From assembly GCF_011745625.1 (NCBI RefSeq), contig NW_027191453.1, positions 868,001 to 932,000 on the forward strand: a stretch of DNA of 64,000 nt, given 5' to 3'. Every line of letters starts with the position of its first letter. Within the stretch, counting starts at the first letter, position 1. Positions 17,163 to 18,400 of the stretch are shown here, in pieces. This DNA is from Cladosporium halotolerans (Eukaryota). The position numbers and the translations under genes are program-made. A model generated the notes under the pieces. It saw nothing but the letters and a program-made list of their open reading frames with translations, was not told where the DNA came from and did not search any database.

Positions 17163-17780
17163 ACTCGGGCACGGGACAATCCACTAGCACCAGTGAGCAT
17201 TCGTCCAATCCCCTGCTCTCCCCGTCGCACCCACATTTGTTCAAGGTAAGTGAAAGCGAGCGCGCGCCGCGGCCGACTCGCAAAATAATAAACTAATAAA
17301 AATGAAGTTAAAAGGACTCGGGGGCGGGAACAGACAACCCACTAGCGCCGTGGCCTCGCTGTCCAATTAGCTGCTCTCATTTTCGCGTCCGCGCTGGATG
17401 TAAGTGAATGAGCAGGTGGGCGTGCGATATCGCGCGCGCGCGCCGCCGCGCCCTGCGAAATAAAAAAATAATAAAAATGAAATTCAAAAGACTCGGGCGC
17501 GGGAAGAGACAACCCACTAGCGCCTTGGCCACATTGTCCAATCAAACGCTTCTGCCGGCCTCCCTTGGCTCGGGCAAGTGAACGACCAAGTCAAGGATGA
17601 AGTGAATGAGCACGCGCTGCGGCGGCGCGGCAGTTTCGCGATTAATCGAAAAAACGAATGAGATTAAAAAGACTCGGGCGGGGGACGAGACAGCCCACTA
17701 GTGTCCGCCGAGATCCCACCAATCAAATACTTGGTGCACTAGATGTTTCACGTGACTCAAGCCCGCTGGAAGTGAAGTGA
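17163..17780. repeat. Tandem degenerate non-coding array: four modules ACTCGGG-N5/10-GACA(A/G)YCCACTAG-N17-CCAAT...AAGTGAA, with GC hairpin and A-tract between modules
   Basis: CTAG at 17184, 17342, 17517, 17698. CCAAT at 17205, 17363, 17538, 17719. ACTCGGG at 17163, 17316, 17491, 17672. AAGTGAA at 17248, 17402, 17600, 17770. Confidence 0.88.
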
Positions 17781-18159
17781 ACGGCTGAAGCAGACAGCCT
17801 CGTTGGATTGAAGCAACCGACTGGACTATCCTGCGACTTACTACAAGCCGGCAAATATACAAGGAGCCGCTGGGTCTTGTCCCATTCTGATGATCAATAC
17901 CTCTTCTGTCTTCCACCGACGACTTTGCGAGATGACAGCTCTCGATTGCTGATGTTCATTTGGAAGGTTTGAAATCGATGGCAGCACTCTACTTTCGATG
18001 TTCGCAACAGAGACAGAGTTCGGCCACTCCACTCAAAATTTGCTGGCAATATTGGCTCTCTTGGCGTTCGCATCTACCGTGGGAGGGCGGTACGACCACC
18101 TCTCCATGTCCGTACACGACATGTCTCGAGGTGTATCGGCGAGACAGGTCAGCTCAGAT

Positions 18160-18184
18160 TAACCCCAAATAACCCTAACCCTAA
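18160..18184 (+). repeat. Interstitial telomere-like repeat (telobox) TAACCCCAAATAACCCTAACCCTAA
   Basis: 2.5 perfect TAACCC units plus one degenerate unit, in intergenic DNA upstream of the OTU gene. Confidence 0.75.
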
Positions 18185-18400
18185 ACTCGCAACGGGGCGC
18201 TAGGGCCAGGTAGTCCCGAGCCAATCAGCTCTTACGGTTGACACTCTCAGATCTCATGACATACAACAAGGTGCTACCAGCTTTCCCAGACGCCTGAAAC
18301 CGATTTTTTACTGAGAGAGCCTTTGTCTTGAGAGCCTCGCGGTAGCCTCGCGGTTTCTAGACCAGTGACACTAGTGCTCCGCCTGGATTCCCTAATCAGC
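18185..18400 (+). promoter_or_regulatory. Two further CTAG-N17-C(C/T)AATCAGC modules upstream of the OTU gene
   Basis: CTAG 18200 with CCAATCAGC 18221; CTAG 18371 with CTAATCAGC 18392. Direct repeat AGCCTCGCGGT x2 at 18333-18354. Confidence 0.6.

Follow-up and report, generated by a model that had tools for sequence, protein, structure and literature searches.

Six CTAG-N17-CCAAT modules upstream of an OTU-domain protease gene in Cladosporium halotolerans: a probable lineage-specific amplification of a conserved promoter module

The stretch of DNA described here, referred to as the window, covers 64,000 nucleotides of the forward strand of Cladosporium halotolerans (assembly GCF_011745625.1, contig NW_027191453.1, positions 868,001 to 932,000), and positions are counted from its first letter unless a relative's locus is named. 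Between an open reading frame (ORF) for the largest subunit of an RNA polymerase and an ORF for an OTU-domain cysteine protease (the OTU gene) lies an intergenic region which holds six copies of a short module, m1 to m6, built of CTAG, a 17-nt spacer and CCAAT (CTAG-N17-CCAAT), and all six point toward the OTU gene. A first-pass annotation had noticed these modules, and the coordinates that it gave were confirmed in the sequence: five of them carry CTAG-N17-CCAAT, and the sixth, m6, reads CTAAT in place of CCAAT. Modules m1 to m4 stand in tandem with periods of 158, 175 and 181 bp, and m5 and m6 are 171 bp apart, again as the annotation had reported.

Five matches to CTAG-N17-CCAAT were found in the window (17184, 17342, 17517, 17698 and 18200, all on the + strand) where dinucleotide-preserving shuffles led us to expect 0.25, and none of 100 shuffles reached five. 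The window contains 99 CTAG, 52 CCAAT and 38 ATTGG, and no match was obtained on either strand at any other CTAG/CCAAT spacing between N5 and N30. The motifs ACTCGGG, GACA[AG][CT]CCA and AAGTGAA, which the annotation had listed as shared by m1 to m4, were found in all four, with AAGTGAA following CCAAT by 38-51 nt, and + strand matches to the three motifs in the window are almost confined to the array. The spacers indeed mostly differ, with 2-7 of 17 positions identical between array modules and 13 of 17 in the m2-m3 pair. In each unit a stretch of at least 76% A/T alternates with a stretch of at least 84% G+C, and AATAAA occurs in the A/T-rich filler at 17287, 17295, 17459 and 17470. Since units m1 to m4 are just 52-68% identical in pairwise comparison, with 28-64 gap columns, the array was not called as a repeat by Tandem Repeats Finder. 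No signature of repeat-induced point mutation (RIP) was seen in these units, transitions being about as frequent as transversions with no transition bias, and no further copies of the module were found elsewhere in the window.

The alignment of orthologous intervals that the annotation had proposed was carried out on relatives fetched by the OTU protein, blind to the motif, which gave 50 metagenome loci. The eight closest loci with upstream DNA represent six distinct sequences, which form group A (L001/L002, L004, L005) and group B (L003, L012/L013, L016), the window being a third deep lineage. The OTU proteins of these relatives are 78-83% identical to that of the window, and those of group A are 87-89% identical to those of group B. 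While the 300 nt upstream of the OTU start have diverged to 50-57% identity among the three deep lineages and are essentially unalignable, the 400 nt before the OTU start hold a single + strand CCAAT in each of the eight loci. It is located between -115 and -122, and in all eight a partner lies exactly 17 nt upstream of it (CTAG, or TTAG in L001/L002; together written YTAG). The 17-nt spacers of these OTU-proximal modules are of unrelated sequence between the groups. Module m6, with its CTAG at -147 and its CTAAT at -126 from the OTU start, is the positional orthologue of the single OTU-proximal module of the relatives, and the block GCTGCAGCTC that follows m6 is common to their proximal modules. 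At about +38 after the relatives' proximal module stands GTRGAAAG, which resembles the AAGTGAA of the array.

The relatives carry one proximal module toward the OTU gene and at most two inverted modules, and a tandem array was found in none of them. The inverted modules, of the form GACAATCCG-TTAG-N17-CCAAT on the minus strand, were found in group B (L003 at 1025 and 953; L012/L013 at 3784 and 3712, a spacing of 72 bp; L016 at 3800), and they keep the N17 spacing and point toward a divergent ORF of 165 aa. When a profile made from m1 to m4 was run against 208 kb of loci, its best matches were the OTU-proximal modules of group A (E 0.002-0.02), and within group B its best matches, on the minus strand, were the inverted modules. 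A profile made from the orthologues only, run against the 64-kb window, ranked m4 and m1 first, weakly (E 0.064 and 0.17). The strict m1-m4 DNA pattern had zero matches in the metagenome contigs.

Altogether 18 distinct modules, which come from three deep lineages and are not 18 independent events, could be compared. YTAG is placed 17 nt 5' of the CCAAT position in 18 of 18, and CCAAT is present in 17, the exception being m6 as it reads here; GACAA at -9 to -5 is found in 13-15 of the modules and Y at +4 in 16. On the 3' side, 13 of 18 modules have C at +1 and 16 have A at +2, giving CCAATCA, and the favourable 3' flank for the CCAAT-binding complex (CBC) has the consensus CCAATCA/G. The mean pairwise identity of the spacers is 0.31 (153 pairs of modules). 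When both strands upstream of the OTU gene were counted in the window and the six relatives, YTAG-Nn-CCAAT had 16 occurrences at N17 and none at any other n from 8 to 27. Sixteen of the 25 CCAAT in these regions are partnered, at a per-position YTAG frequency of 0.005. As a control for insertions and deletions, the gap between CCAAT and GCTGYAGCTC, the conserved block that follows it, was measured in the same seven orthologues and varies from 13 to 42 nt. Because the filler is saturated and this second distance has been free to vary, the 17-nt distance appears to be selected and not merely inherited. The blocks that were kept by paralogues and orthologues alike are GACA, YTAG, CCAAT and the N17 distance. 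Like a minisatellite, the array is made of head-to-tail units of similar length; unlike one, its units are poorly alike and rich in indels, yet keep motif blocks and one internal distance invariant, in line with the annotation's view that selection rather than the decay of a minisatellite is at work.

The coordinates of the modules, of the filler between them and of the two flanking genes are collected in Table 1.

Table 1. Features of the array and its flanking genes (positions in the window; strand left empty where none applies)
Feature	Position	Strand	Content
Module m1	17163..17254	+	ACTCGGG 17163; GACAATCCA-CTAG 17175-17187; 17-nt spacer; CCAAT 17205-17209; AAGTGAA 17248-17254
Module m2	17316..17408	+	ACTCGGG 17316; GACAACCCA-CTAG 17333-17345; 17-nt spacer; CCAAT 17363-17367; AAGTGAA 17402-17408
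Module m3	17491..17606	+	ACTCGGG 17491; GACAACCCA-CTAG 17508-17520; 17-nt spacer; CCAAT 17538-17542; AAGTGAA 17576 and 17600
Module m4	17672..17781	+	ACTCGGG 17672; GACAGCCCA-CTAG 17689-17701; 17-nt spacer; CCAATCA 17719-17725; AAGTGAA 17770 and 17775
Module m5	18185..18227	+	ACTCG..CGGGG; CTAG 18200-18203; 17-nt spacer; CCAATCA 18221-18227
Module m6	18367..18419	+	GACA-CTAG 18367-18374; 17-nt spacer; CTAAT 18392-18396; block GCTGCAGCTC 18410-18419
Unit 1 inter-module filler	17255..17319		GC-rich 17255-17282, then A/T-rich with AATAAA 17275-17319
Unit 2 inter-module filler	17424..17495		GC-rich (CG)n 17424-17460, then A/T-rich with AATAAA 17451-17495
Unit 3 inter-module filler	17607..17674		GC-rich 17607-17634, then A/T-rich 17641-17674
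Telomere-like TAACCC x2.5	18170..18184	+	CCCTAA at 18173 and 18179; immediately 5' of m5
OTU-domain cysteine protease ORF, 295 aa	18518..19405	+	OTU domain
RNA polymerase largest-subunit ORF, 1481 aa	12442..16887	+	Rpb1 domains 1-5; upstream neighbour of the array

Further details of the DNA within and around the modules are recorded here. Alternating (CG)n runs are present in the GC-rich filler of units 1 and 2 (17424-17447 and 17255-17282); they may be prone to form Z-DNA or to slip, and they differ from one unit to the next. A lone CCAAT (CCAATGA, 17155-17159) with no YTAG partner lies 4 nt upstream of the ACTCGGG of m1, and two more lone CCAAT are found in the OTU leader, at 18447 and 18453. 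Just upstream of m6 there is a perfect 11-bp direct repeat, two copies of AGCCTCGCGGT at 18333-18354. In the relatives, (T)TAGGGCTGCAGCTC follows the proximal modules. In L016, at about 3720-3760 on the minus strand, where L003 and L012 have their second inverted module, stands GGCAATCCG-CCAG-N17-AGCAAT, which looks like a decayed copy with the 17-nt distance still in place. A GGGTTAGGGTTGGGG run is seen in L016 at about 2290-2310 (minus strand), some 50 nt downstream of an outlying module. The telomere-like repeat by m5, the GGGTTAGGGTTGGGG run and (T)TAGGGCTGCAGCTC may be sites of the Tbf1 type, as in ribosome-related promoters.

Runs from close strains of the window (X1, X3 and X4, at 95-99% identity) were also compared. 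Close strains at 95-97% identity carry array units, the contigs of X1 covering m1 and m3 to m6 and those of X3 covering m2 to m5. Position 18393 is a C, so that m6 reads CCAAT, in all three runs that cover it (X1, X3 and X4). Run X3 is without 16 nt at 17686-17701, which form the GACAGCCCACTAG half of m4. In X1 and X4 two A are inserted after 18354, by the direct repeat upstream of m6. Two runs, X2 and X4, come from two studies and are RNA-like, the type of run being a guess. Their RNA-like contigs end at 17014 (X2) and 17011 (X4), past the polymerase ORF, which places the start of the array about 150 nt beyond the apparent 3' end of the polymerase gene. The polymerase contig of X4 is 4661 nt long and, if colinear, begins about 88 nt before the polymerase start codon, as would fit a full polymerase mRNA. 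The OTU contig of X4 starts at 18265, which is 44 nt after the start of the CCAAT of m5 and upstream of m6; this start, seen in a single run, is a weak hint of promoter activity in a duplicated module. Over 17015-18264 the cover by X2 and X4 comes to one 154-nt piece at a depth of 2.3, and this was counted as evidence neither way.

The annotation had placed the array by its upstream neighbour, the gene for the largest subunit of Pol III, and that neighbour does have Rpb1 domains 1-5, but the array is unrelated to the polymerase gene, which stands upstream of the OTU gene in the window only and in no fetched relative locus. Sequence look-alike clusters of the OTU protein are mostly from Ascomycota. 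Downstream of the OTU gene synteny with the relatives is retained (the genes at about 19500-22700 of the window are common to them), and the 4 kb upstream of the OTU gene in L002, L013 and L016 (1-4000) had no tblastx match anywhere in the window. The break in synteny falls exactly in the intergenic region upstream of the OTU gene (16888-18517). In group B the divergent neighbour of the OTU gene is an ORF of 165-166 aa (L013 2807-3304 and L003 60-560, both on the minus strand), which has a hydrophobic, membrane-like look, no Pfam match and no homologue in the window; a sub-threshold match to EamA was all that Pfam gave for the relatives' upstream ORFs. A 712-aa ORF with an FHA domain at 9512-11650 (minus strand) is unrelated to the array.

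Several identities for the array were considered. An array of small RNA genes (small nucleolar RNA (snoRNA), tRNA or an Rfam family) was discarded, as there was no covariance-model match and no conserved structure. A search of Rfam at E up to 10 over 16500-19000 gave no match in the array, the lone match being a sub-threshold CD-box at 17000-17068 on the minus strand (13.3 bits, compared to a gathering score of 45), outside it. ARAGORN predicted zero tRNA genes. When the four stretches between modules were folded as single strands, for either strand, the folds were no better than those of shuffles (z -1.55 to +0.70), and RNAalifold found zero pairs in the 18 aligned modules. Protein-coding modules were rejected by eye, with frames that are interrupted by stops and inconsistent between units, and a 64-codon ATG ORF near 17979-18170 looks random. 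A C/D snoRNA read from TGATGA ... CTGA at about 17889-17953 has no Rfam match, its TGATGA is altered in the 154-nt contig of X4, and it is probably due to chance. As for the end of a dispersed transposon or of a miniature inverted-repeat transposable element, the module keeps its place before the OTU start in orthologous loci, no copies beyond the array were found in the 64-kb window, and the strict-pattern scan of the metagenome contigs gave no match. The annotation had recognised no described element, and with no curated RNA family match and no copy elsewhere in the window this still holds.

As the relatives carry one module at the orthologous position, with the N17 distance kept, the array can be read as the lineage-specific amplification of a conserved and oriented element. 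The motif, its exact spacing, its orientation and its conservation are observed, as are its homology to the orthologous promoter element and its increase to six copies. We consider it probable, on comparative sequence, that the array arose when the conserved proximal promoter module of the OTU gene itself was amplified in tandem in this lineage, and that it would act as a composite element and activating cluster, with four upstream copies (m1 to m4, in units of 153-181 bp) and two proximal ones (m5 and m6). From the same comparison we infer the binding proteins, their cooperativity, the position of the transcription start site (TSS) and the effect on expression. The core of each module would be an oriented composite cis-element, GACAA-N4-YTAG-N17-CCAAT(CA). 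Its CCAAT(CA) half would be bound by the CBC (HapB/C/E, the fungal NF-Y), as the annotation had suggested in proposing a composite element around a CCAAT box, and (GACAA-N4-)YTAG would be read by a second sequence-specific factor, each judged from its motif. The YTAG half starts 21 bp, or two helical turns, upstream of CCAAT, and both factors may therefore sit on one face of the DNA. The spacing does not vary at all, not even by 1 bp in either direction, which would point to a rigid contact, either direct or through a bridging protein. CCAAT would be the TSS-proximal half, with initiation predicted some 40-45 bp downstream, and the four extra copies, as a homotypic cluster of sites ahead of the OTU promoter, would most simply add to its activation. 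More tentatively, GACAA-N4-YTAG-N17-CCAAT may constitute an undescribed, clade-restricted and directional fungal element of the enhanceosome type, in which a second factor, two helical turns upstream, is locked to the CBC either directly or by a bridging protein, as by Sp2 in DECA-CCAAT, and CCAAT faces the gene. No description of a YTAG-N17-CCAAT element was found by full-text search of the literature, which does not prove that it is unpublished.

In Aspergillus, CBC:HapX sites are described as CSAAT-N12-RWT together with TKAN 11-23 bp downstream (PMC7144946). The CBC is reported to bend DNA by 68 degrees and to work with stereo-aligned partners, and to cover DNA up to 12 bp 3' of CCAAT, with HapX sitting 11-23 bp downstream (PMC7266990, PMC7144946). 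These sites resemble the modules in that a fungal CCAAT is paired with another short motif whose distance from it is constrained, and in being conserved between species in a promoter-specific way (PMC7144946). The spacing is invariant here, unlike that of the HapX half-sites, which range over 11-23 nt, and the partner half would lie across CCAAT from the known HapX sites. An invariant distance, diverged filler and conservation across species, as expected of a stereo-aligned NF-Y composite in general, were all found. In animals, NF-Y composites with invariant spacing include the endoplasmic reticulum stress element (ERSE), CCAAT-N9-CCACG, which is bound by NF-Y and ATF6. In DECA-N11-CCAAT (TALE/NF-Y/Sp2), the fixed spacing is put down to a bridging protein, which allows a change of only about 1 bp (bioRxiv 10.64898/2026.02.16.706105). 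Like DECA-CCAAT and ERSE, the modules combine CCAAT with another motif at a distance that does not vary, while the filler is free to do so, and they differ in spacing (17 as against 11 or 9), partner motif and kingdom. They are not members of either class, with no TGATTGACAG at 11 bp and no CCACG at 9 bp, and with GACAA-N4-YTAG at 17 nt as their consensus; GACA loosely resembles the TALE core TGACA, the T at -10 being found in just two of 18 modules. We know of no fungal counterpart of the DECA or ERSE partner. Other partners considered by eye from their consensus (the SrbA SRE, RFX X-box, TALE TGACA, Yap/AP-1 half-sites, Myb and Tbf1 TTAGGG, and Schizosaccharomyces pombe HomolD) fit a few modules and fail the invariant T-A-G or the modules of group B, and none was adopted.

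Amplification of promoter segments has a precedent in TR34 and TR46 of Aspergillus fumigatus cyp51A, where a tandem duplication in the promoter multiplies transcription factor sites by a CBC site and alters expression of the downstream gene (PMC9239056, PMC7266990). Both cases involve a tandem-duplicated segment of the promoter of the downstream gene, and the array units are likewise homologous to the OTU gene's own proximal promoter element. The cyp51A repeats are 34 or 46 bp long, recent, present in two to three copies and variable within populations; the array has much older units of 153-181 bp, with saturated filler and four plus two copies.

A number of observations weigh against an amplified promoter module of this kind. 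The close relatives all come from three metagenome assemblies, and the modules, as said, do not amount to 18 independent events. The element is confined to a single clade, relatives at or below 67-69% OTU identity being without it: the loci at 67-69% (L006, L014 and L020/L021) lack CCAAT in the 400 nt before the OTU gene. The strain of the window has itself lost the CCAAT of its proximal copy, m6, and the deletion in m4 of X3 means that at least one array copy is dispensable. A lone module outside the OTU intergenic regions, the only one found, occurs in L016 at 2371 on the minus strand, where no target gene could be recognised from the ORFs. Binding by the CBC is a prediction from the motif, and the modules do not resemble CBC:HapX sites: HapX, the known partner, binds downstream, the partner motif is here YTAG preceded by GACAA and placed 17 nt 5' and not 3' of CCAAT, and RWT at +12 is found in none of the 18 modules, so that a CBC:HapX site was rejected.

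Some of these points would suit a neutral by-product, in which unequal crossing-over or slippage copied a segment of the OTU promoter, perhaps at the rearrangement that brought in the polymerase gene, and left m1 to m4 as functionless, decaying copies. The array is indeed absent from all sampled relatives beyond the close strains of the window and lies exactly at the synteny break, and both the missing half of m4 in X3 and the lost CCAAT of m6 in this strain look like decay. That decay is strongly non-uniform, however, with ACTCGGG, GACARYCCACTAG, CCAAT, AAGTGAA and the 17-nt distance intact in four of four copies; the blocks retained among paralogues include GACA, YTAG, CCAAT and N17, which are those retained among orthologues, and the units have no RIP-like transition bias. 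We therefore give such a by-product a slim chance. Autonomous mini-promoters, or tiny transcription units, are in our judgement unlikely but somewhat better supported by the layout. Here m1 to m4 would each fire a short transcript near AAGTGAA, about 40-50 nt after CCAAT, which would cross the GC-rich stretch and end in the A-rich stretch with AATAAA, and the function would lie in the RNAs or in the act of transcription, such as the modulation or insulation of the OTU promoter by non-coding transcription upstream of it. Each unit does run from module through about 40 nt to AAGTGAA, then GC-rich and then A/T-rich sequence with AATAAA, the CCAAT of m5 lies 44 nt before the start of an RNA-like contig, and the relatives' proximal module is followed by the AAGTGAA-like GTRGAAAG. 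The GC-rich hairpins, on the other hand, fold no better than shuffles in any of eight folds, no Rfam match falls in the array, and the A/T-rich stretch of unit 3 is without AATAAA.

It was also suggested in the annotation that the array may be a boundary or origin-like platform, and nothing was found in support of such a role. In its chromatin form, nucleosomes would be phased by poly(dA:dT) tracts and factor sites that recur every 158-181 bp, and the polymerase terminator would thereby be kept apart from the OTU promoter. A period near the nucleosome repeat, the alternation of A/T-rich and GC-rich stretches in each unit and a start some 150 nt past the point where the upstream mRNA seems to end (17011-17014) are what one would expect of it, but the relatives' module is single or has a 72-bp period, so that the period of about 170 bp is not conserved, and we think this explanation very unlikely. 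Most improbable of all is an element acting at the RNA level, either as a host gene for snoRNA or other small RNAs with GTAAGT splice sites between the units, or as a motif in the 5' untranslated region of the OTU mRNA. GTAAGTGAA at 17246 and 17400 and the fact that the RNA-like OTU contig of X4 extends over m6 could be cited in its favour; GTAAGT is found in just two of the four units, and inspection by eye gave no reading frame that is consistent among the modules. The annotation's interpretation is thus partly supported, and the amplified proximal promoter module is the reading that we prefer.

If the modules are indeed an element of the enhanceosome type, the six-copy array would be a ready-made bait for the partner factor and a natural experiment in the amplification of promoter modules. 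With the array read as an amplified proximal promoter module, whole promoter modules, and not just pieces of 34-46 bp, would be amplifiable in tandem, with the binding motifs outlasting the randomisation of the filler between them. In yeast, Otu2, the counterpart of the OTU-family deubiquitinase, acts on the ubiquitination of ribosomal proteins, and with the CCCTAA pair by m5 and the OTU gene in mind one could speculate that the element belongs to a translation-linked regulon. Strictly spaced CCAAT composites are a classic route by which NF-Y and the CBC acquire gene-specific functions, and in fungi HapX downstream of CCAAT is, to our knowledge, the only well-characterised geometry of a CBC partner. 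The modules suggest, by comparative sequence alone, a different CBC geometry, in which the partner lies upstream at exactly 17 nt in an orientation tied to the gene, and the existence of a second CBC partner is now directly testable.

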